Shown here piece after piece: positions 11,888 to 39,678 of a stretch of 64,000 nucleotides of DNA. This DNA is from Sphaerochaetaceae bacterium. Lineage in GTDB: Bacteria; Spirochaetota; Spirochaetia; Sphaerochaetales; Sphaerochaetaceae. Made by a program: the position numbers and the translations under genes. The first letter of the stretch is position 1; each line of letters begins with the position of its first letter. The stretch covers positions 749 to 64,748 of the forward strand of contig JAZLGI010000003.1 in the NCBI GenBank assembly GCA_045616225.1. The letters run 5' to 3'. The notes under the pieces were generated by a model. It was not told where the DNA came from. It worked only from the letters and a program-made list of their open reading frames with translations, and searched no databases.

Positions 11888-13738
11888 ATGGACAAAAGAT
11901 TTCTTCCGGTAAACAGAAAAGATATGGATTCTCTGGGTTGGCAAAATGCAGATATTCTCTTTCTTTCTGCAGATGCCTATGTAGACCATCCGTCTTTTGC
12001 AGGAGCACTCCTTTGCAGACTCCTGACGAGTAAAGGATACAAAGTGTGCATTGTTCCGCAACCGGACTGGAACAATCCTGATTATCTTGTTTCTCTGGGA
12101 CGGCCTAATCTCTGTTGTATGATAAGCGGAGGCAACTTAGATTCCATGGTTGCACATTATACAAGCACCAGAAAAAAAAGAAGTGATGACAAATACTCTC
12201 CTGGCGGAAAAGCAGGATTAAGACCTGACAGACCTGTAATAGCCTACACAAACCTTGTGAGAAGGGCTTTCAAAGATATGCCTGTAATCATAGGCGGTCT
12301 TGAAGCTTCTTTGAGAAGACTGGCACATTATGATTATTGGCAGGATATTGTCAAAAAATCTATTTTGTTGGATTCCAAAGCAGACTTGCTTGTATTTGGA
12401 ATGGGAGAAAAACAAACTCTGGAAATTGCTTCAAGATTAAAAAAAGGAGAACAAATAAGCACTTTCCATGACATCAAGGGAACCTGTTACTGCGTAAACG
12501 AAAAAAACAAAGATTCTCTTGGTCCATTTAAAACAATTGAACTTCCAAGTTTTGAAGCTGTTTCAGAAAGAGATAAAGTAACCAACACTCCAACTCAGAA
12601 TGGAAAACTTGCATTTGCAACGGCTTTTAACATAGCAATGCAACATGAAAATCCTTTTGATTCCTGTTGTCTTGTTCAGCCTTGCAATGGAAGAATAGTG
12701 GTTCAAAATCCTCCGGCAGAACCTTTATCTCAAAAAGAATTTGATGAACTATATGAACTGCCTTATTCAAGAACATGGCATCCTATGTATGACAAGGATA
12801 ACGGTGTTCCTGCATTAGCTGAAGTTCAGTTTTCCATAACCTCTTCAAGAGGTTGTTTTGGCTCCTGTTCTTTCTGTGCCATAACCAATCATCAGGGACG
12901 TATCATCCAAACAAGAAGTATTCAATCATTGGTTAAGGAAGCCACCGTTTTAACTCATCATCCGGACTTCAAAGGTTACATAAATGACCTAGGCGGACCA
13001 ACGGCAAATTTCCAGTGTCCTTCATGTGAAAAACAAACAACAAAAGGACCTTGTTCAAACAGAGAATGTCTCTTTCCAAAACCTTGTCCAAATGTAAAAG
13101 ATTCTCATGAAATTTACTTGGAAAAACTGCGTGCAGTAGCATCTGTTCCGGGTGTGAAAAAAGTGTTCATAAGAAGTGGAATACGCTTTGACTATCTTAT
13201 GCTTTGCACTCCTGAAAAAACAAGAGAAAAATTCATAAAGGAACTGGTGGCAAATCACGTAAGCGGTCAACTGAAAATAGCTCCTGAACATGTATCTGAA
13301 GAAGTCCTGTCTTGCATGGGGAAAAGCCCTGTGAACGTGTATGATTCTTTCAAAAAATCTTTCTTTGAAGAAAACAGAAAACAAGGCAAGAGACAGTACC
13401 TTATTCCTTACTTTATTGCAGCCCATCCGGGGGCAACTTTGGACAGTGCTGTTGAGCTTGCACTTTACATGAAAAAAGAGGGTTTTGTCCCGGATCAAGT
13501 CCAGGAATTTTATCCTACTCCTGCAACGGTTTCCACCTGTATGTATTACACCGGATTGGACCCGCGACCTGGTAAAAACCTGGTAAAAGTGTATGTTCCA
13601 AAGGGAAGAGACGCAAATCTTCAGAGGGCATTGCTCCAGTTTAACAAACCGCAAAATAAAGCTATGGTAATTGAAGCACTTAAAAAAGCAAAAAAGCCTG
13701 GTTTAATCCAGGTTTTAACCGGGAAAATTGAAAAATGA
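11888..13738 (+). CDS. ygiQ: YgiQ-family (UPF0313) radical SAM protein
   Basis: 616 aa. The characteristic N-terminal domain is present (FLPVNRKDMDSLGWQNADILFLSADAYVDHPSF). The radical SAM cluster motif is CFGSCSFC. Confidence 0.85.
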   Translation: MDKRFLPVNRKDMDSLGWQNADILFLSADAYVDHPSFAGALLCRLLTSKGYKVCIVPQPDWNNPDYLVSLGRPNLCCMISGGNLDSMVAHYTSTRKKRSDDKYSPGGKAGLRPDRPVIAYTNLVRRAFKDMPVIIGGLEASLRRLAHYDYWQDIVKKSILLDSKADLLVFGMGEKQTLEIASRLKKGEQISTFHDIKGTCYCVNEKNKDSLGPFKTIELPSFEAVSERDKVTNTPTQNGKLAFATAFNIAMQHENPFDSCCLVQPCNGRIVVQNPPAEPLSQKEFDELYELPYSRTWHPMYDKDNGVPALAEVQFSITSSRGCFGSCSFCAITNHQGRIIQTRSIQSLVKEATVLTHHPDFKGYINDLGGPTANFQCPSCEKQTTKGPCSNRECLFPKPCPNVKDSHEIYLEKLRAVASVPGVKKVFIRSGIRFDYLMLCTPEKTREKFIKELVANHVSGQLKIAPEHVSEEVLSCMGKSPVNVYDSFKKSFFEENRKQGKRQYLIPYFIAAHPGATLDSAVELALYMKKEGFVPDQVQEFYPTPATVSTCMYYTGLDPRPGKNLVKVYVPKGRDANLQRALLQFNKPQNKAMVIEALKKAKKPGLIQVLTGKIEK

Positions 13739-21762: not shown

Positions 21763-22698
21763 TTAAAATTTTACTTCTTCTTCGTTATCAAAAAGATAAC
21801 CGTTTGGATCTAAAAACTGATAAATTCTTTCCAGTTCATCCGTATTATTAAAAGGAATAACTACTTTACCTTTGTTAAGTTTTCCTTTAATTTCTACTTT
21901 GCATCCACTTGCAGAAAGAAATTTTTCTTCTATTTCCATTATTTCTTCTGTTTTAATCTTCTTTTGCTTAATTAAAACTCTATTCGTATTAATTGCACGT
22001 ATTCCATTATTTAGATTACTTGCCAATTCTTCAGATTGTCTAACAGATAAGCCTTTTGAAATAATTTCAGAATAAAGTATTTCTCTTTCAGCAGGATTTT
22101 CTACACTTAATAAAGCTCTTGCATGCCCACTGGTAAAATCTCCTTTTTCAAGAGAATCAAGCATATTTGGCGCAAGATTCAACAATCTTATACTATTAGC
22201 TATGGCAGGACGGCTTTTACCAACTCTTTTAGCAAGTTCTTCCTGTTTAATTCCGGATTGTGATATAAGGTAACTATAAGCCCTGGCTTCTTCAACAGGA
22301 TTCAAGCTTTCTCTTTGAATATTCTCAATTAAAGAGACTTCCATCCTTTGTAAATCAGAAAATTCTCTGACAATACAAGGTACTTTACTGAGTCCTGCCA
22401 ATTTGGAAGCTCTATATCTTCTTTCGCCTGCAATTATTACATAGCTATTTTCAGAAATTTCTTCCACTAGAAGCGGTTGAATTATTCCTTGTGCAGCTAT
22501 TGATTGAGCCAATTCATTAAGTTTTTCCACATCAAAGACTTTTCGCGGTTGATTAGGGTTAGCTTTAATATTTGAAATGTCAATTTCAATTATTTTTGCA
22601 CCTGTTTCTTTCAATTTTTCTGTTTCAAAATTTGCGAAGGCATCATAATTCCCCATAAGAGATTCAATACCTCTGCCCAGACCTTTCTTAATTGACAC
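21763..22698 (-). CDS. parB: chromosome partitioning protein ParB/Spo0J
   Basis: 311 aa. It shows the N-terminal GLGRGIESL, ParB box [10 protein letters not shown], and an HTH ([22 protein letters not shown]). Confidence 0.92.
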
Positions 22699-23446
22699 GA
22701 TTTATAATCTCCTTAGTAAGTTTTGAATAAGCAACAGCTCCGGGACAATGCTTATCATATATAGTAATAGGAACGCCATGACTTGGAGCTTCACTTAAAG
22801 TAATATTTCTTGGAATTAAGGTATCAAAAACAACACCTTTAAAAAACTGTACTACATCTTCTACTACTTGATTGCAAAGTTTTGAACGCTTAGCATACAT
22901 TGTAAAAGCTATACCCAAAACTTTTAATTCAGGATTAAGATTTCTTCTTACTGCAGTAACCGTTTTCATAAGCATATTCAATCCTTCCATAGCAAAATAT
23001 TCACATTGCATTGGAATTACAACAAATTCAGTCCAAGTTAAAGCATTCATTGTTATTAAATCTAAAGAAGGAGGGCAATCTGCAAGAATGTAATCAAAAT
23101 CTTCTTCCAAAGGTTCTATAGCATTCTTTAAGAAGAATTCTCTTCTTTCTTCATCTACCAATTCAACAGCAAGGCCTGCCATATTAATCCCACCAACCAA
23201 ACAAAAAAGATTTTTTACCGGAGTGGCTTGTATTGAACTTTTATCTGCATTACCTGCAATTAATTCATAAACACCAGGCTTAGTTTTATCAGCAGAAACA
23301 GCACTAGAGAGATTTCCTTGAGCATCAAGATCAAGAAGCAGCACTTTGCTTCCTTTTGAAGCAAGGAATGCACCTACATTAACACAGGTAGTTGTCTTTC
23401 CAACACCACCTTTTTGGTTAATAAAAATAATTTTTTTTGCTTTCAT
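22688..23446 (-). CDS. parA: chromosome partitioning ATPase ParA/Soj
   Basis: 252 aa with deviant Walker A NQKGGVGKTT. It overlaps parB by 11 nt. Confidence 0.92.
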   Translation of the reverse strand: MKAKKIIFINQKGGVGKTTTCVNVGAFLASKGSKVLLLDLDAQGNLSSAVSADKTKPGVYELIAGNADKSSIQATPVKNLFCLVGGINMAGLAVELVDEERREFFLKNAIEPLEEDFDYILADCPPSLDLITMNALTWTEFVVIPMQCEYFAMEGLNMLMKTVTAVRRNLNPELKVLGIAFTMYAKRSKLCNQVVEDVVQFFKGVVFDTLIPRNITLSEAPSHGVPITIYDKHCPGAVAYSKLTKEIINRVN

Positions 23447-30084: not shown

Positions 30085-30286
30085 ACATTACTTGTCAGAA
30101 ACCTGTTGATAAACTTGTTAAATAAAAATATATGAAAAAACATTAACAAGTTATGCACAATTTGTCATTTTTTTATAGTCAAATATTATAAAGAATTACT
30201 AGGTTATGAACTGTTTTTATGATACTATTACTACTACTGATTAAAAATAAGTTACTAATAGAAGAAGTTGATAACGGGAGTTTATT
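30085..30286. promoter_or_regulatory. dnaA-dnaN spacer with a single consensus-type DnaA box
   Basis: TTATGCACA lies at 30151-30159 within ACAAGTTATGCACAA (30146-30160). The flanks are AT-rich. Confidence 0.45.
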
Positions 30287-31390
30287 ATGAAATTTATCTG
30301 TACAAAAGAATCTATATTAAAAGAAATTTCAAATGCCAATGATTTTACAGCTCAAAGAAATACTCTTTCTGTTTTAGCCTGTGTATGTCTTATTTTAAAC
30401 GACAACAGTCTTATCATAAAGGCAACAGACCAAAAAATGGGTTATGTTTCAGAAATTTCAGTTCAGGGTATTGAAAACGGTTCAATTACTGTAATGTGCG
30501 ATAAATTTTTGGATATTATTAAAAACCTTCCTAATAACGACATTATTTTTGAAGAAGAGGATGATAAATTAATAATTAAGCCTCAAGACGAATCTATGGA
30601 TTTTAAACTGAGAACAACAGATGCTTCTTCATTCCCTGTTATATCAATTCCTGAAGAAGGTGACTTTTTTTCAGTTCCGCAGAAAGATTTAACAGACATG
30701 ATTAATCAGGTAAGTTTTGCAGTAAGTGATGATGAATCAAAATTTGCCATGAACGGTGCTTTGTTTGAAAAAGACGGAAACGGAATCATTATGGTTGGCA
30801 CAGATGGAAGAAGACTTTCTTATATCAACAGAAAAATTGCAAATCCTATTCCTTCTTTTTCAAGTGCAACTATTCCTTCAAAATTCCTCGGAATTATCAG
30901 AAAACTTTCTGTTAATGAAGGTAGTTTTGACATTTGTGTAAGTTCGCTTTCTATTTTTATCAGATTTGGCAGTTGTACTATTTTTTCAAATCTTATTAAA
31001 AATGAATTTCCGGCTTATAGAAGAGTTATTCCTGAAAATCAAACAAAGACTTGTATTGTTAACATAAAAGCTCTTGAAGAGGCTTTAAAGCGTGTCTCAA
31101 TTCTTGCAGAAAGCAAGTACAAGAAAATTATCATTGAATTTGCAGAGAACGAGATGACTATCAGCTGTGAAGAAAACGACTTTGGTGCAGGAAAAGAATC
31201 TATAAAATGCAGTTATTACGGAGAGCCTCTTAAATGTGCTATGAATTATCTTTATCTGCTTAATCCAATTAAGGTTATGGAAGGTCAAGATGCAAAGATT
31301 TCATTCACAGAAAGTAGCAAACCGTTTACAGTTACATCTGCAGATGGCAGAGATTACCTTCATGTAATCATGCCAATGAATCTTAACTAA
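30287..31390 (+). CDS. dnaN: DNA polymerase III beta sliding clamp
   Basis: 367 aa, positioned directly after dnaA with a typical N-terminus (MKFICTKESILKEI). The stop overlaps the recF start as TAATG. Confidence 0.95.
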   Translation: MKFICTKESILKEISNANDFTAQRNTLSVLACVCLILNDNSLIIKATDQKMGYVSEISVQGIENGSITVMCDKFLDIIKNLPNNDIIFEEEDDKLIIKPQDESMDFKLRTTDASSFPVISIPEEGDFFSVPQKDLTDMINQVSFAVSDDESKFAMNGALFEKDGNGIIMVGTDGRRLSYINRKIANPIPSFSSATIPSKFLGIIRKLSVNEGSFDICVSSLSIFIRFGSCTIFSNLIKNEFPAYRRVIPENQTKTCIVNIKALEEALKRVSILAESKYKKIIIEFAENEMTISCEENDFGAGKESIKCSYYGEPLKCAMNYLYLLNPIKVMEGQDAKISFTESSKPFTVTSADGRDYLHVIMPMNLN

Positions 31391-32478
31391 TGAAAGTAAA
31401 TAAGCTCACATTCAGAGGTTTCAGAAATCTTACAGACTGTGAGCTGAATACAAAAGCAAAACAAATAATTCTCACAGGTGAAAACGGACAAGGAAAAACC
31501 AACCTTTTGGAATTGGTTTACATTCTTTGTTATGGTTCTTCTTTCAGAACACAAAACCTAAAAGATTGCATAAAATACAGTGAAAATCAGTTTTTATTGA
31601 AATGTGAATTTACAGATTCAGAAAATCTTTCCAGGGAAATAGAAATAGTTTTTTCGCAGACCGGAAAATCCATAAAACTTGACGAAAAGGAAATTCATGA
31701 CAGAAAAGAACTGATTTACTGTCTTCCTTGTATTGTTTTTTCTCATGATGATATTGAATTTGTGAGGGGAGAACCGGAAAACAGAAGAAGATTCTTTGAC
31801 CAAACAATGACAATGTATGACTCTCAATTTTTTGATCTTTTGAGAAAATACAAGTACATTCTCAGGCAAAGAAACGTTGCAATAAAAGAAAAACAGACAG
31901 AGATACTGAGTGTATTGGATGAAAAATTAGCAGAGTACGGTTTACTCCTCATGAAAGAAAGATCTGCAGTATGTTCATCATTTGATGCTATTTTTCCTGA
32001 TATTTACCGAGCAGTGTCCTTAGATGATAAAAACATAAAAATTACTTACAGACCATCCTGGAATCCTAATTTTTCTTTAGAAGATGTTAAAAAATATCTT
32101 TCTGAACAAAGAGAAACAGATTTGAAAATGGGTACTTCCACAAGTGGTCCTCATAGAGACAGATTTATAATCTCTGACCAAAACGGGCTTTTTGTAAACG
32201 GAGCTTCTACCGGTCAAATGAGACTGGCTTCTCTTGTCTTCAGAAGCGCTCAGGCTGCTTTTTACAGACAAAAAACGGGAATAGACCCTATTTTTCTTAT
32301 AGATGATGTTTTGTTGGAATTAGATCCTCAGAAGAGAGCTAGATACCTTACTTACCTAGGACATTATAATCAGGCTTTCTTTACTTTTTTGCCAGATGAA
32401 AAATACTTTTCTTCTTACGGTTTGGATTGTACCATGTACAATGTTGAAAAAGGAGAATTTCTTGCCTCATCCAAATGA
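31390..32478 (+). CDS. recF: DNA replication and repair protein RecF
   Basis: 362 aa with Walker A GENGQGKTNLLE, an SMC-like signature region, and Walker B IFLIDDV. Confidence 0.95.
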   Translation: MKVNKLTFRGFRNLTDCELNTKAKQIILTGENGQGKTNLLELVYILCYGSSFRTQNLKDCIKYSENQFLLKCEFTDSENLSREIEIVFSQTGKSIKLDEKEIHDRKELIYCLPCIVFSHDDIEFVRGEPENRRRFFDQTMTMYDSQFFDLLRKYKYILRQRNVAIKEKQTEILSVLDEKLAEYGLLLMKERSAVCSSFDAIFPDIYRAVSLDDKNIKITYRPSWNPNFSLEDVKKYLSEQRETDLKMGTSTSGPHRDRFIISDQNGLFVNGASTGQMRLASLVFRSAQAAFYRQKTGIDPIFLIDDVLLELDPQKRARYLTYLGHYNQAFFTFLPDEKYFSSYGLDCTMYNVEKGEFLASSK

Positions 32479-32803
32479 CAAAATTTACAACAGAATAGAA
32501 CCCGAAGATCCTGTTACATCTGCAGATTTCTTAAAACAGATTCTGGATAGATATCATATAGATTTCAATAATCCGGCAAGGCATATTATTTCACAATGGA
32601 AAGAACTGGCAGGTCCTGCCATAGGTAATTATTCTGAATGTGTTGGTTATTCAAAAGGAGTTATTGAGGTTGTCTGTAGCCATCCTGCTTACCTTCAATT
32701 GGTAAAAATGAGCAAAAAAGAAATCTTAAAAAATGTAAATTCTGTCTTTCCTGAGTTAAAAGTCACAGATATGAGAGTATCTGTAAAAACAACTGATACT
32801 TGA
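32441..32803 (+). CDS. DUF721 (DciA-like) protein
   Basis: It sits in the conserved position after recF, and the sequence W..LAGP.I...S....Y..G.IEV...HPAYLQ fits DUF721. The start is uncertain: ATG 32441, or TTG 32462 six nt after AAGGAG. The track start at 32396 would overlap recF by 83 nt. Confidence 0.7.
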   Translation: MLKKENFLPHPNDKIYNRIEPEDPVTSADFLKQILDRYHIDFNNPARHIISQWKELAGPAIGNYSECVGYSKGVIEVVCSHPAYLQLVKMSKKEILKNVNSVFPELKVTDMRVSVKTTDT

Positions 32804-36009: not shown

Positions 36010-37260
36010 TCAGCAAATAAGTGATACAGGACAGTACCAGGCAGATTCGTTAATTGGCATGAGTTTTTCGCAGCTGTCAATTACAAGCCCCGGTGCAATT
36101 TCCTTTTTATATATTTTGAGTGATGAAAAATTCTTTGTAGGATTTGAAGGGGATATTCCTTTTTTTATCTCAATAGGGTATATGGTATCGTTTTGTACAA
36201 ATAAAAGATCTATTTCTTTTTGTCCCATTGTCCTAAAGTAATATAAATTGTCCGGACTTGTTCCTGTTGCTGTAAAGCTTTTTACAATTTCACTGACAAC
36301 AAATGTTTCAAAAAAAGCACCTGCCATATTGCTTTTTTCCATCATTTCCGAAGTTGGCCACTTGCACAGATAAGAACAAAGACCGGTGTCCATGAAGTAG
36401 AGTTTAGGGCTTTTTATAATGCTTGTTGATGCATTTTTCATGTAAGGATGGAGCATGAAAACAATTCCGGAAGTTTCAAGAATGGACATCCATCTTTTAC
36501 AGGTTTTTACATCAATTCCAACATTTCTGGAAATATCATCCCAGTTAATTTCCTGAGCTGTTCTCATTGCACACAATGCAAGAAAATTTCTGAATTGAAA
36601 TTCAGATGTGGTGGAAATGAGAAGTTTAACATCCTTTTCAATGTAAGTGTTTACATAGGATTTAAAAAATAAATCTCGGTTGATTTTTGAACTTATGAGT
36701 TCAGGCATTCCACCGGTAAAAATTTCTTCAAAAAGCTCTAACCGGTTTCTGCTTTTTGGTCGTTGTTCCTGTTGTTTTCTTGTAAGTACTTCAATTCTAG
36801 GATTGAATTCTTGCCCCTGCCGCCTGTCTTTTTCGTTCATTGACAAGGAATACATATGAAGAACAGCAGTTCTTCCTGCTAGGGTTTCTACTGTTGATTT
36901 CATTAATTCAAGCTGGTTTGAACCTGTAAGAATGTACATAAGCGGAGCTTTTTGATTTTTTTTAAGGCACTCATATTTTTTTTCATCAATATTTATTTTT
37001 ATTTGACTGAGGAGTTGAGGTGCTTTCTGAATTTCATCAATTATCACAGGATATGGATGTACCTGTAAGAAAAGTTTTGGGTTTTGTTGAGCAAGGAACA
37101 GTTGTTCACTGTCATCCAGTGTTACTGTTTCTATTTCGTTTCCAAACAAATGTTTGACAGTAGTACTCTTACCAACCTGTCTTGCTCCGTAAATTGTTAT
37201 ACAACAAAAGGAATCAGCTGCTTCTTTGATTGTCTGCTCAATATTTCTCGGATAGTACAT
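36010..37260 (-). CDS. AAA+ ATPase with DUF4143-type C-terminal domain (AAA_14 family, unknown function)
   Basis: 416 aa with Walker A GARQVGKST and Walker B-like VIIDEIQK. The C-terminal region is typical of DUF4143 (GAFFETFVVSEI...YFRTMGQKEIDLL). Confidence 0.8.
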   Translation of the reverse strand: MYYPRNIEQTIKEAADSFCCITIYGARQVGKSTTVKHLFGNEIETVTLDDSEQLFLAQQNPKLFLQVHPYPVIIDEIQKAPQLLSQIKINIDEKKYECLKKNQKAPLMYILTGSNQLELMKSTVETLAGRTAVLHMYSLSMNEKDRRQGQEFNPRIEVLTRKQQEQRPKSRNRLELFEEIFTGGMPELISSKINRDLFFKSYVNTYIEKDVKLLISTTSEFQFRNFLALCAMRTAQEINWDDISRNVGIDVKTCKRWMSILETSGIVFMLHPYMKNASTSIIKSPKLYFMDTGLCSYLCKWPTSEMMEKSNMAGAFFETFVVSEIVKSFTATGTSPDNLYYFRTMGQKEIDLLFVQNDTIYPIEIKKGISPSNPTKNFSSLKIYKKEIAPGLVIDSCEKLMPINESAWYCPVSLIC

Positions 37261-37310
37261 ATTTTGTTTTTTTCCTTGGCTAAAATTTAGTTGATTGGAG
37301 CATAAAAATC

Positions 37311-37346
37311 AATATGAAAATGGGAGTCCACTCCCGTTTTCATATT
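37311..37346. promoter_or_regulatory. long near-perfect palindrome in a divergent promoter region
   Basis: AATATGAAAATGGGAGT-CC-ACTCCCGTTTTCATATT has 17-bp arms with one mismatch. No gene ends nearby, so a terminator role is unlikely. Confidence 0.5.
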
Positions 37347-37365
37347 AAAATCTGTCAAAAATTCC

Positions 37366-37434
37366 TGTTATGTTTTGTTATGATTTTTTTATTTTGTTAT
37401 TATTTGTTATGAATTGTTATTATCTGTTATGAAT
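37366..37434. repeat. helically phased TGTTAT repeats (20-bp unit TGTTAT-N4-TGTTATGAWT x3)
   Basis: TGTTAT starts at 37366, 37376, 37395, 37405, 37415 and 37425. The units at 37395-37414 and 37415-37434 are 19/20 identical. Confidence 0.6.
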
Positions 37435-37534
37435 TCTATCTTTAACAGAATTAACATTTGCAATTTGTTTTCAAACAATTCGGTAATATTCAATAAGTTC
37501 TCTTTTGTTGTCTGTTTATCTTTTAAATGCTAGT

Positions 37535-38560
37535 ATGGTTGTCATGAAGAACAAGGTTGGAAAAGTTTTTGGAATTGGAAATCCTCTTATTGATGTCTAT
37601 TCTCCTGTAAGTGATGAAGAATTGTCTTCTCTCGGTCTTTTTAAGGGTACTATGAACCTTATTTCAATTGAAAAAAGACTTGAGCTTACAGAATTTGTAA
37701 AGAGTAAAAAACCTGTTTTCAATTGTGGAGGATCTTGTCCAAATACAATTATTTCCTTGGCTTCTTTGGGGATAGATACAATCCTTGGCGGAAAAGTAGG
37801 TAAAGATGAATGGGGTTCTATCTATAAATCAAAACTTGACAGCTTTGGAGTTGGGAATAATCTTGCTGTTTCTGAAAATGTTACCGGTTCTTCCATTATT
37901 TTGGTTACTCCTGATTCAGAAAGAACAATGAATACATACCTTGGAGCCAATAGAGATTATAATTCAGATGATGTCATAGAAGACAGTGTTGCCGGTTCTG
38001 ATTTCTTTCATTTTACCGGATATATGTGGGACACGGAAAACCAAAAAGAGGCTATAAATAAAGCAATGGCAATTGCGAAGAGAAACAATGTAATGATTTC
38101 TTTTGATATTGCTGATCCTTTTGCAGTAGGAAGATATAGAGACTCTTTTGTGGAGCTTATTAAAAACAATTGTGATGTAGTTTTTGCAAATAAAGAAGAA
38201 GCCAGAAGTCTGGTTGATAAGTATGATCCTTATGAATGTTGTAAGACAATAGGAAAGATGTGCAGTATTGCAGTTGTAAAGAACGGAAAGAAAGGTTCTT
38301 ATGTTAGCCTTAATCAGAAAGTCTATGAAATTCCGGTAAAAGGTCCTGTAACTCCAGTAGATACAACAGGGGCAGGAGATAACTACGCTGCAGGTTTTTT
38401 ATATGGACTTTGTCATGGGTTAGATGTGGAGAGTTCTGCAACAATAGCTTCAATTTTAGCAGGTGAAATAATAAGTCAGGTTGGCGCTCAGTTTTCAAGT
38501 GAAAAGGCTCTGGAGCTTAAAAAAGCTTTTGAGTCAGAAGCTTGGAAGACCTGGCAGTAA
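37535..38560 (+). CDS. PfkB-family carbohydrate/nucleoside kinase (adenosine-kinase-like)
   Basis: The signature is DTTGAGDNYAAGFLYG, with the N-terminal GIGNPLIDV. The start is ATG 37535 or 37544; the track start at 37505 is a TTG. Confidence 0.85.
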   Translation: MVVMKNKVGKVFGIGNPLIDVYSPVSDEELSSLGLFKGTMNLISIEKRLELTEFVKSKKPVFNCGGSCPNTIISLASLGIDTILGGKVGKDEWGSIYKSKLDSFGVGNNLAVSENVTGSSIILVTPDSERTMNTYLGANRDYNSDDVIEDSVAGSDFFHFTGYMWDTENQKEAINKAMAIAKRNNVMISFDIADPFAVGRYRDSFVELIKNNCDVVFANKEEARSLVDKYDPYECCKTIGKMCSIAVVKNGKKGSYVSLNQKVYEIPVKGPVTPVDTTGAGDNYAAGFLYGLCHGLDVESSATIASILAGEIISQVGAQFSSEKALELKKAFESEAWKTWQ

Positions 38561-38645
38561 TGGTGTCTTGCTTTTTTCAAATCTAAGTTTCTTTTTCCTT
38601 TTAAATAATAGAATTAGCTTGTTTTTCCTGTTTTTATCAACACAC

Positions 38646-38895
38646 TATTGCACAAGTTATGCACAAGTTGTTGGCAATGGTTTTTTTAACATTAAAGTAC
38701 AAGTGTCTACGTCACAAAAACACTCTTAATTCAGAATTTGTTACCTGCGTTATTAACTCTTTATTTTAAAAGGAATTAAAAATTTTGTTAAGTTAATTTT
38801 TTGTATAAAAATTTATATAACTTTTACAGTAAAAAACATTAGATTTTTACAGATTTATTGATTGTTTGTACTGATTTATGCACAAGTTATACACA
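38646..38895. promoter_or_regulatory. two tandem pairs of DnaA-box-like 9-mers flanking an AT-rich ORF-free spacer (candidate oriC element or DnaA-box cluster)
   Basis: The 9-mers are TATTGCACA 38646-54, TTATGCACA 38657-65, TTATGCACA 38876-84 and TTATACACA 38887-95, all in the same orientation. Three fit TTATNCACA exactly. About 210 bp of very AT-rich DNA lies between the pairs. Confidence 0.4.
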
Positions 38896-39678
38896 AGAAT
38901 TCTGTTCAAGAATAGTTTGGGCTGCTCCTATTGCATAAATTGCTGCTGTTTCACATCTTAATATGTTTGTTTTCAGTAAAACAGGCTTCATTCCTGCCTG
39001 AAGAAGCATAGTACATTCCTCATTGGTAAGACCACCTTCTGAACCAATCAGAATGCCTGTAACACCATCAAAACCATTTAAAATGCTGTAGAGGCTTTCT
39101 TGTTTCTCTCCTGTGTTACTTTGATGAAGGAATATACCTATTTCCTTTTTGTTTAGAGACTGTGCTTTTTTAATTAAGTCTTCATAAACCTGACTTATAT
39201 CTATTACTCCTTCAACAGTTGTAGGAACCAAAGACCCGCTTTGTTGAATGGCTTCCTTGATAACAGAATCATATCTTGTTAATTTTGATTCTTCTTTTCC
39301 TGAAAAATCTGCAACACAGTTTTTACTTCTGACAAGTACTATTGTTTTTACTCCGGCTTCTGTTGCCATTCTTATGATATCGTCTGTTTTTCTTCCTTTA
39401 GGAATGCATTGATAGAGAATTATAGTTTTTTCAGGTCTGTCTTGAGGGAGTGTGTCTGTTTGCTCTTCTTCATGATCTGTTTTTTCAGATGACAGTGAAA
39501 CAGAAGTTTTTGTTATGGATAAAACTTCAAGATTCCAAAGTTGTCCAAGAGAATCTCTTCCCAGAATTTTCTGTCCGGACTTTAATCTTAGAACATTTAC
39601 AATATAGTTGTATTGTTTTCCGGTTAATTCAAGAAGAGACTCTCCATTGTAGCTAGGGGGAAGAAGGTAAATTCTCAT
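38887..39678 (-). CDS. rsmE: 16S rRNA (uracil1498-N3)-methyltransferase RsmE
   Basis: 263 aa with an N-terminal PUA-like domain and the C-terminal SPOUT block ILIGSEGGLTNEE...LKTNILRCETAAIYA. Confidence 0.85.
   Translation of the reverse strand: MRIYLLPPSYNGESLLELTGKQYNYIVNVLRLKSGQKILGRDSLGQLWNLEVLSITKTSVSLSSEKTDHEEEQTDTLPQDRPEKTIILYQCIPKGRKTDDIIRMATEAGVKTIVLVRSKNCVADFSGKEESKLTRYDSVIKEAIQQSGSLVPTTVEGVIDISQVYEDLIKKAQSLNKKEIGIFLHQSNTGEKQESLYSILNGFDGVTGILIGSEGGLTNEECTMLLQAGMKPVLLKTNILRCETAAIYAIGAAQTILEQNSCV

Follow-up and report, generated by a model that had tools for sequence, protein, structure and literature searches.

An origin-proximal cluster of predicted DnaA boxes conserved across Sphaerochaetaceae: a candidate control site for replication initiation

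In the 64-kb stretch of Sphaerochaetaceae DNA analysed here (henceforth the window), we found a non-coding element of about 260 bp (positions 38634-38895), 8.5 kb from dnaA, which contains five same-strand predicted DnaA boxes within 262 bp. These comprise one single box and two tandem pairs in an 11-bp register, with the pairs placed at either end of a region that includes an AT-rich core and a near-palindrome. The architecture is conserved family-wide, its tandem pairs recur in relatives only here and in the dnaA-dnaN spacer, and the element lacks the hallmarks by which we recognised an origin in that spacer. Based on these sequence features, our leading and still tentative reading is that the element is an origin-proximal, non-origin DnaA-binding locus, most likely a control site for replication initiation. 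On this reading DnaA would bind the boxes, a second protein would bind the core, the DNA between the pairs would loop, and the effect on initiation would be negative.

Sites outside the origin through which DnaA is controlled are known in detail from E. coli (datA and DARS) and B. subtilis (DnaA-box clusters, or DBCs), and the element is a compact, family-wide candidate from Spirochaetota, where, to our knowledge, no non-origin DnaA-box cluster has been characterised. A full-text literature search on Sphaerochaeta, DnaA and origin returned nothing relevant, and we found no earlier description of the element. It belongs to a known kind of locus (i.e., a DnaA-box cluster outside oriC), with a conserved architecture that differs from those of datA, DARS and the B. 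subtilis clusters.

Architecture of the element and its conservation

The original prediction described four same-orientation 9-mers forming two tandem pairs with an 11-bp start-to-start spacing, and both their coordinates and their sequences proved correct. Specifically, box pair 1, TATTGCACA-AG-TTATGCACA, occupies 38646-38665 on the forward strand as two head-to-tail 9-mers in 11-bp register (38646-38654 and 38657-38665), while box pair 2, TTATGCACA-AG-TTATACACA, lies 230 bp after it in the same orientation at 38876-38895 (members at 38876-38884 and 38887-38895). A fifth box on the same strand had been overlooked: TTATCAACA at 38634-38642, with one mismatch to TTATCCACA, begins 12 bp ahead of the first box of pair 1. 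Three of the four paired boxes do fit the relaxed consensus TTATNCACA, and these are three of only five matches to it in the entire window; box counts across the window likewise agreed that this is its densest cluster. The last box was said to overlap the stop codon of rsmE, and indeed the last 9-mer of pair 2 corresponds to the last two codons and the stop (38887-38889) of that gene on the opposite strand (ORF 38887-39678, minus). The extended 15-mer ACAAGTTATGCACAA (38652-38666), reported to be shared with the dnaA-dnaN spacer, recurs there at 30146 and again, as ACAAGTTATACACAA, at 38882, which amounts to three matches in the window against 0.6 expected. A repeat search additionally found that the two ends of the element form a 44-nt direct repeat, 70% identical and 230 bp apart.

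We assessed how often such an arrangement would arise by chance using Markov simulations, in which 0.007 tandem pairs per 64 kb were expected when one mismatch was allowed over the two boxes together. Given this rarity, the presence of a second same-strand pair 230 bp away and the conservation of the arrangement in relatives, chance can be excluded as an explanation. Single 9-mers alone were not significantly enriched (5 observed vs. 3.1 expected), and the signal is one of clustering, register and conservation, not of single-box count. One further loose tandem match, at 13153 (minus strand), lies within coding sequence and was judged to be a chance occurrence.

The DNA between the pairs had been described as very AT-rich. 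Its left part (38666-38752, about 87 bp) has kept its length between clades and not its sequence, as judged from ungapped stacks and from alignment, and is followed by the AT-rich core proper at 38753-38857 (+96 to +200 of the element), which has a GC content of 13% compared to 36% for the window. Consensus blocks within this core include a GAATTA-type block at 38772-38782 and an 18-bp near-palindrome, AAAATTTATATAACTTTT, at 38808-38825, which is the most conserved block outside the boxes and has the family consensus AAAAnTTATATAAnTTTT. Its relaxed form, AAnnTATATAnnTT, has a single occurrence in the window and in relatives is almost confined to the element; we thus rejected the idea of a widespread operator, the palindrome being essentially unique to the element. 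The GC content of the core is about half that of the surrounding locus in all 36 lineages (e.g., 0.32 vs. 0.56 in lineage L017), and its AT-richness persists even in genomes with 55% GC, although by itself this is no proof of unwinding.

Two further ideas about the core were considered. The first, a central IHF site, gained no clear support: the IHF consensus WATCAANNNNTTR is absent from the centre of the element, the palindrome does not match it, and we saw it only in Sphaerochaeta, overlapping the box in TTATCAACA-AG-TTA of pair 2. The second, a continuous DnaA array between the pairs (231 bp = 21 x 11), was rejected, since weak boxes in the 11-bp register were no better than average (mean of 2.45 matches out of 8 in register vs. 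2.37 overall). A search for intrinsic curvature gave mixed signals: the autocorrelation of A-tracts had maxima near 10, 20 and 33 bp together with others at 5 and 14 bp, in sequences that are related to one another.

Relatives were represented by 80 loci around YidC homologues, with the element measured in 36 of them and the distance between the pairs in 29. The YidC of the nearest relative is 68% identical to that of the window, while among species representatives in the genome collection the highest value is 61%; these loci place the window within Sphaerochaetaceae, among gut and rumen lineages. A backbone of gyrA-gyrB and dnaA-dnaN-recF-yidC-jag is syntenic in all loci, and the element was found downstream of jag in 36 loci, wherever the sequence extends far enough, including clades in which YidC is only 44-61% identical to the window's. 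Conservation of the box pairs in relatives had been set beforehand as a check on the prediction, and an equivalent of pair 1 was present in every one of these loci (36/36). In the closest relative (L081, YidC 68%), no element was found in the pfkB-rplM spacer, and the contig stops before the element could be located.

The layout common to the family begins with at least one upstream single box and a tandem pair, after which come about 90 bp without alignable sequence between clades, about 100 bp of AT-rich DNA, the near-palindrome AAAAnTTATATAAnTTTT, about 55 bp more, and another tandem pair oriented like the first. Of the 29 measurable loci, 23 have their pairs 230-233 bp apart (the exceptions being 242 bp, found twice, 208, 214 and 229/250 bp), and in both the window's clade and the Sphaerochaeta clade the distance from the second box of pair 1 to the start of the palindrome is 156-158 bp; in other words, the spacing is fixed while the intervening sequence is mostly unalignable. 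An upstream box-like 9-mer is present in most relatives; counted from the second box of pair 1, it lies at -23/-21 in the window's clade and at -34 in the Sphaerochaeta clade. At the level of sequence, all eight aligned members of the L003 clade retain TATTGCACA(A/G)GTTATGCACA, with one A/G change in the linker, and so does the window; the overlap of pair 2 with the rsmE stop codon is found in the L003 clade as well.

The arrangement is also specific. Taking two boxes in 11-bp register as a tandem pair when neither had more than one mismatch, we counted 124 such pairs in 1.25 Mb of relatives' DNA, of which 73 lie in the dnaA-dnaN spacer, 51 in the element and none elsewhere. The concern voiced with the original prediction, namely that the motif might be equally dense in many AT-rich spacers, is therefore not borne out, as 124 of 124 pairs fall into one or the other of these two places. 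Together with the conservation of the pairs, this outcome speaks for a real functional element. The 11-bp unit (i.e., TTATNCACA followed by AG or GG) from which the element's pairs are made also builds the arrays of the family's dnaA-dnaN spacer.

A control-site model and its analogues

In the origin of E. coli, a 2-bp gap between 9-mers supports cooperative head-to-tail binding of DnaA. Each tandem pair of the element might similarly bind a DnaA dimer or a short oligomer with high affinity, and the two pairs, about 231 bp apart, would flank an AT-rich and easily deformed core in which the palindrome could be recognised by a dimeric or architectural protein. Together with the fixed span, this core and its palindrome suggest a defined nucleoprotein complex with the two loaded ends held together: bending or looping of the core may join both DnaA-loaded ends into one compact complex, which would sequester DnaA and/or promote the inactivation of DnaA-ATP. 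As the element is only about 6-14 kb from the unwinding site, it would be duplicated almost at once after initiation, thereby doubling the sink and discouraging re-initiation. The parts of the element are sharply delimited (the pairs, the 231-bp span, the core and the palindrome) and could be mutated separately. Several observations count against the control-site reading: next to the B. subtilis clusters, five boxes make a small sink; boxes on either side of AT-rich DNA also resemble an origin; the palindrome does not match the IHF consensus; the curvature signal is mixed; the skew data described below are limited; and L081, the closest relative found, lacks the element in its pfkB-downstream spacer.

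The closest working analogues of such a control site appear to be the B. subtilis DnaA-box clusters and E. coli datA. In B. subtilis, the gcp-ydiF cluster lies between the 3' ends of convergent genes, a location that was called uncharacteristic for transcriptional regulation, and only box density and affinity were reported to be critical for the clusters, with no fixed geometry (PMC2533591); jointly, the DBCs restrain or delay initiation in a position-dependent manner (PMC3245932). The element resembles these clusters, and DBC[gcp-ydiF] especially, in that both are non-coding box clusters outside but near the origin and that gcp-ydiF, too, is found between convergent 3' ends; the high local density of boxes in an intergenic region outside oriC by which a DBC is recognised is likewise seen in the element. 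By contrast, the two share no sequence homology, and the boxes of the element, just five in number, follow a rigid 1+2 ... 2 layout that spans a fixed 231 bp and includes an AT-rich core and a palindrome.

E. coli datA stimulates the hydrolysis of ATP bound to DnaA, and its loss leads to untimely initiation. Minimal datA comprises 187 bp near oriC, in which boxes 2, 3 and 7 are essential, box 4 is stimulatory and the spacing of the one architectural-protein site is critical, and a DNA loop has been postulated to join the DnaA molecules bound to its boxes (PMC10380432). Like the element, datA is small, non-coding, close to oriC and equipped with few boxes; its essential boxes flank the architectural-protein site, and a spacing that is critical in datA has its counterpart in the conserved spacing of the element. 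The general description of datA, i.e., a few boxes within about 200 bp near but outside oriC, would also suit the element with its five boxes within 262 bp. The differences are that the two loci are not homologous and belong to different phyla, that the element's central palindrome does not fit the IHF consensus, that the element is longer (about 260 bp vs. 187 bp), and that its boxes are all in one orientation and form tandem pairs.

The E. coli DnaA-reactivating sequences DARS1 and DARS2 are, like the element, non-coding box clusters, and they act on DnaA and not as an origin; their function needs boxes I and II to be head-to-head (PMC10380432). No head-to-head boxes were found in the element, all of whose boxes are on the plus strand and head-to-tail, in the window as well as in relatives. 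A DARS-like role is consequently unlikely.

Genomic neighbourhood and transcription

In the window, the element occupies a 326-bp spacer between the stop of a pfkB-family carbohydrate kinase gene at 38560 and that of rsmE at 38887. The left neighbour (37505-38560, plus strand; Pfam PF00294) and the right neighbour, which encodes an RsmE-type 16S rRNA methyltransferase (38887-39678, minus strand; Pfam PF04452 and PF20260), both have their 3' ends toward the element. The gene order of the region is parA-like, gyrA and gyrB (all minus), followed by dnaA, dnaN, recF, dciA, rnpA, yidC and jag (all plus); after jag come a DUF4143 ATPase gene (minus), pfkB (plus), the element, rsmE, pepP and lgt (all minus), and an S41 peptidase gene (plus). 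The pfkB gene of the window is inverted relative to most relatives. It had been argued that convergent neighbours leave the spacer with no need for a promoter, which holds in the window and in most clades but not in the clade of L022, L027, L030 and L036, where rsmE is on one side of the element and the 5' end of pfkB on the other.

The neighbours themselves differ between clades. On the left we found pfkB (window), an S41 peptidase gene (L003 clade) or an EPSP-synthase-family gene (Sphaerochaeta and low-GC clades), and on the right rsmE, a sigma-54 activator gene, or a gap and then feoB. In L012 and L026 the element is inverted and located directly after jag. Its distance from dnaA, on the other hand, is confined to 5.7-14.3 kb downstream in every relative locus, and in the window it lies 8.4 kb from the DnaA-trio array of the dnaA-dnaN spacer. 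Given that the neighbours vary and the orientation flips, yet the distance from dnaA is kept, the function of the element would seem to be tied to the proximity of the origin and not to a neighbouring gene, which points to an autonomous unit linked to the origin region.

These observations bear on an alternative that we consider unlikely, namely that the element is a DnaA-controlled transcription feature: either a promoter in the core that drives an unannotated small RNA or peptide, or a DnaA roadblock or insulator against read-through. DnaA acts as a transcription factor at several box clusters in other bacteria (PMC2533591; PMC13438810), the palindrome contains TATA-rich hexamers, the element is upstream of pfkB in the four loci named above, and no intrinsic terminator was detected in the window's spacer, meaning that read-through into the element is possible. 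However, the hexamers lack the conserved final T of a -10 element, scans of the element in L017, L020 and L069 gave no sigma-70-like promoter, and the two weak matches in the window are at unconserved positions and fewer than expected by chance. In L017 and L020, moreover, the upstream gene has a terminator hairpin of its own, which ends directly at the first box, and in general it is the neighbours that change between clades while the element does not. A promoter at the palindrome was rejected in the absence of a sigma-70-like match at a conserved position.

The searches for a product of the element gave a similar picture. There was no Rfam family or tRNA match at the element, and folding the alignment (plus strand, L003 clade only) yielded a consensus RNA structure of -4.8 kcal/mol with zero compensatory pairs; a structured non-coding RNA was accordingly rejected, there being neither covariation nor an Rfam match. 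The original prediction saw no credible ORF in the spacer, and we agree: the ORFs of at least 20 aa are short, overlap the boxes and lie in unconserved sequence. With no conserved ORF, a small protein was also rejected.

The replication origin and origin-related readings

The dnaA-dnaN spacer of the window contains the boxes TTATCAACA (30104-30112, minus strand) and TTATGCACA (30151-30159, plus strand), and then a probable unwinding module at 30193-30239 (plus strand). The latter is made up of GAATTACTAGG, a degenerate box TTATGAACT (30204-30212), a 9-bp spacer and the DnaA-trio array ATA CTA TTA CTA CTA CTG (30222-30239; bottom strand 3'-TAT GAT AAT GAT GAT GAC-5'), downstream of which are AT-rich DNA and the start of dnaN at 30287. 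The order of motifs in the dnaA-dnaN spacer is the same in every clade: arrays of boxes on the minus strand come first, then boxes on the plus strand, GAATTAcTAnG and a TTATNCACA box; after a further 9 bp or so follow CTATTATTACTATTATTACT, AT-rich DNA and the beginning of dnaN. Exactly this box plus DnaA-trio sequence has been listed for Sphaerochaeta globosa Buddy at 1661-1700, with the B. subtilis module in the same notation (Table S2 of PMC8287927), and under the rule given for the basal unwinding system (BUS) a box must be followed within 16 bp by three or more DnaA-trios, each reading NAN on the bottom strand and ideally GAT or AAT (PMC8287927). The dnaA-dnaN spacer follows this rule in all clades. 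Judged by its sequence, the module is the box/spacer/DnaA-trio of a basal unwinding system of the B. subtilis type, and the unwinding origin most likely lies in this spacer.

At the element, no conserved trio array was found beside any box, either in the window or in relatives; a weak run noticed by eye after pair 1 in the window (ATG GTT TTT TTA, 11 bp past the box) is conserved in no relative. We also examined the skew of third-codon GC (GC3), for which the best change point in the window falls at 24-33 kb, a change at 38.9 kb being 11.3 log-likelihood units below the best point and 4.9 below 30.3 kb. When 29 loci were pooled and gene-strand effects separated, the replication-strand term of GC3 was +0.088 from jag to the element and +0.073 beyond it, i.e., there was no polarity switch at the element, with the proviso that these data are supportive only, being short-range (+-10 kb in relatives, 64 kb in this genome) and confounded by gene-strand effects and related sequences. 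The original prediction offered two possibilities, the true origin or the second half of a split origin, and a DnaA-regulatory cluster. Since the trio module is found elsewhere, with none at the element and no skew switch there, the true origin is not upheld, and a regulatory cluster is the better fit.

A different question is whether the element could be an auxiliary or latent origin, acting as a partner of the dnaA-dnaN module by looping, or as an origin-like site that fires conditionally or on a plasmid. We regard this, the main rival reading, as rather improbable, although several features would suit it: the succession of boxes, a core of about 100 bp that is AT-rich and further boxes, the five good boxes as against three in the window's dnaA-dnaN spacer, and the maintenance of the element near dnaA in relatives. 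The gyrB-dnaA spacer contains no boxes, which means that the usual upstream half of a bipartite origin is missing, and bipartite origins provide a precedent for a divided one. The element also shares with the BUS of oriC a cluster of tandem head-to-tail boxes adjoining AT-rich DNA, but it has no conserved trio array beside any box, nor did we see a compositional polarity switch, for which the skew has limited power; the pooled GC3 replication term has the same sign on both sides. Furthermore, a distance that ranges over 5.7-14.3 kb, together with the flip in two lineages, is awkward for a fixed looped complex, and the flanking genes mostly converge, such that outgoing forks would meet both head-on.

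Another precedent for a second origin-like region near the first is oriCII of Pseudomonas, which is dispensable for, and unused in, normal chromosomal initiation, overlaps the gidA promoter, regulates gidAB-parAB and replicates autonomously on a plasmid (PMC13438810). Both oriCII and the element are conserved second box regions some kilobases from the dnaA-linked origin, but the element is mostly promoter-free and situated between the 3' ends of genes. A particular form of the origin hypothesis, and in our judgement a distinctly unlikely one, is a second origin-like replicator in Sphaerochaetaceae, in which the DnaA-loaded ends would be clamped round the AT-rich core by a palindrome-binding protein; it could act as a back-up or condition-specific origin, or as the obligatory, looping distal half of the origin. 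If true, this second replicator would represent a split or dual chromosomal origin in Spirochaetota.

The box variant follows the clade at both loci, being TTATGCACA in the window's clade and TTATCCACA in Sphaerochaeta, in the element and in the dnaA-dnaN spacer alike, and the preferred fifth base co-varies between the two loci (G in the window's clade, C in Sphaerochaeta). Such a joint shift is what would be expected if one protein reads both. We consider it very unlikely that some protein other than DnaA binds the repeats, or that they are left over from a mobile or recombination element. Admittedly, it is (T)GCACAAG, not TTAT, that is kept best within the unit, and two variants that each depart from the DnaA consensus at two positions, TATTGCACA and AATTGCACA, are conserved; yet the same 11-bp unit also forms the origin arrays between dnaA and dnaN and is found nowhere else in the 1.25 Mb, and the boxes of Sphaerochaeta are perfect TTATCCACA. 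As for a mobile element, there is one copy per locus, in a syntenic position and with no adjoining transposase or integrase.

The notion that the element is the sole true oriC, with the dnaA-dnaN boxes serving just to regulate the expression of dnaA or dnaN, could appeal to its AT-rich centre and to its rank as the densest box cluster in the window, but can practically be dismissed: a box and trio module of an experimentally validated type is present in the dnaA-dnaN spacer of all clades and published for Sphaerochaeta, the GC3 change fits best at 24-33 kb (with 38.9 kb worse by 11.3 log-likelihood units), the skew does not change sign at the element across 29 loci, and replication would run head-on into the transcription of dnaN, recF, yidC and jag. 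In this genome the element holds more good boxes than the probable origin spacer, and origin predictors that count boxes could choose the wrong locus.

Gene content and probable unwinding module of the origin region

A gene of the DciA family (PF05258, a helicase-loading factor) was detected on the + strand directly 3' of recF (window 32396-32803), giving the origin cluster the order dnaA-dnaN-recF-dciA, and its counterpart occupies the same place, directly 3' of recF, in the closest relative found (L081, 9024-9359). The typical gene set of an origin region is completed by a ParA/MinD-family ATPase gene beside gyrA (window 22688-23446, - strand, immediately left of gyrA). The dnaA-dnaN spacer itself carries an unwinding module of the textbook type, namely a box followed by DnaA-trios (window 30193-30239; trios CTA TTA CTA CTA CTG). 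The box adjoining the trios in the window is degenerate (TTATGAACT, two mismatches), and the relatives have a perfect TTATGCACA or TTATCCACA at this position. In one relative (L059) the spacer is enlarged to 628 bp (1306-1934); of its 18 perfect TTATNCACA boxes, most are strung together as two to four units in 11-bp register.

Apparent rearrangement between jag and the DnaA-box element

In most relatives pfkB directly follows jag on the opposite strand, whereas in the window it is inverted (region 36010-38560) and separated from jag by a DUF4143/AAA_14 ATPase gene (36010-37260, - strand). In the closest relative, L081, pfkB likewise lies on the + strand, with a DUF4143 gene in the vicinity. 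The inverted pfkB together with the DUF4143 gene looks like a lineage-specific rearrangement with an endpoint at the element.

Clade-specific sequence within the element

The left half of the element varies in sequence, with the exception of a 46-bp block, CCTTCCCAnCTTGG(T/C)ACTAATCAnnTGAgTAGTAGAtttTAATT (columns 67-112 of alignment A2), that is specific to a single clade (L003, L004, L011, L014, L017, L020, L025 and L033). This block includes TGGCAC/TGGTAC and TAGTAG motifs and is absent from the window. In the Sphaerochaeta clade (L057, L062, L063, L067, L069 and L078), the first box of the second tandem pair is a conserved variant, TTATCAACA-AG-TTA, that also fits the IHF consensus WATCAANNNNTTR. 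This match recalls E. coli oriC, where an IHF site overlaps box R1, but may just as well arise incidentally from the tandem-box sequence.

Additional features of the relatives' loci

One Sphaerochaeta relative (L063) carries a cobalamin riboswitch directly 3' of jag (12380-12568, + strand; 93 bits), which has no relation to the DnaA-box element. The Sphaerochaetaceae origin cluster is also clearly present on five contigs (L002, L006, L009, L018 and L021) publicly titled as Segatella copri, Bacteroidaceae, Coriobacteriaceae or Phocaeicola massiliensis; errors in the binning or labelling of metagenome bins probably account for these titles.
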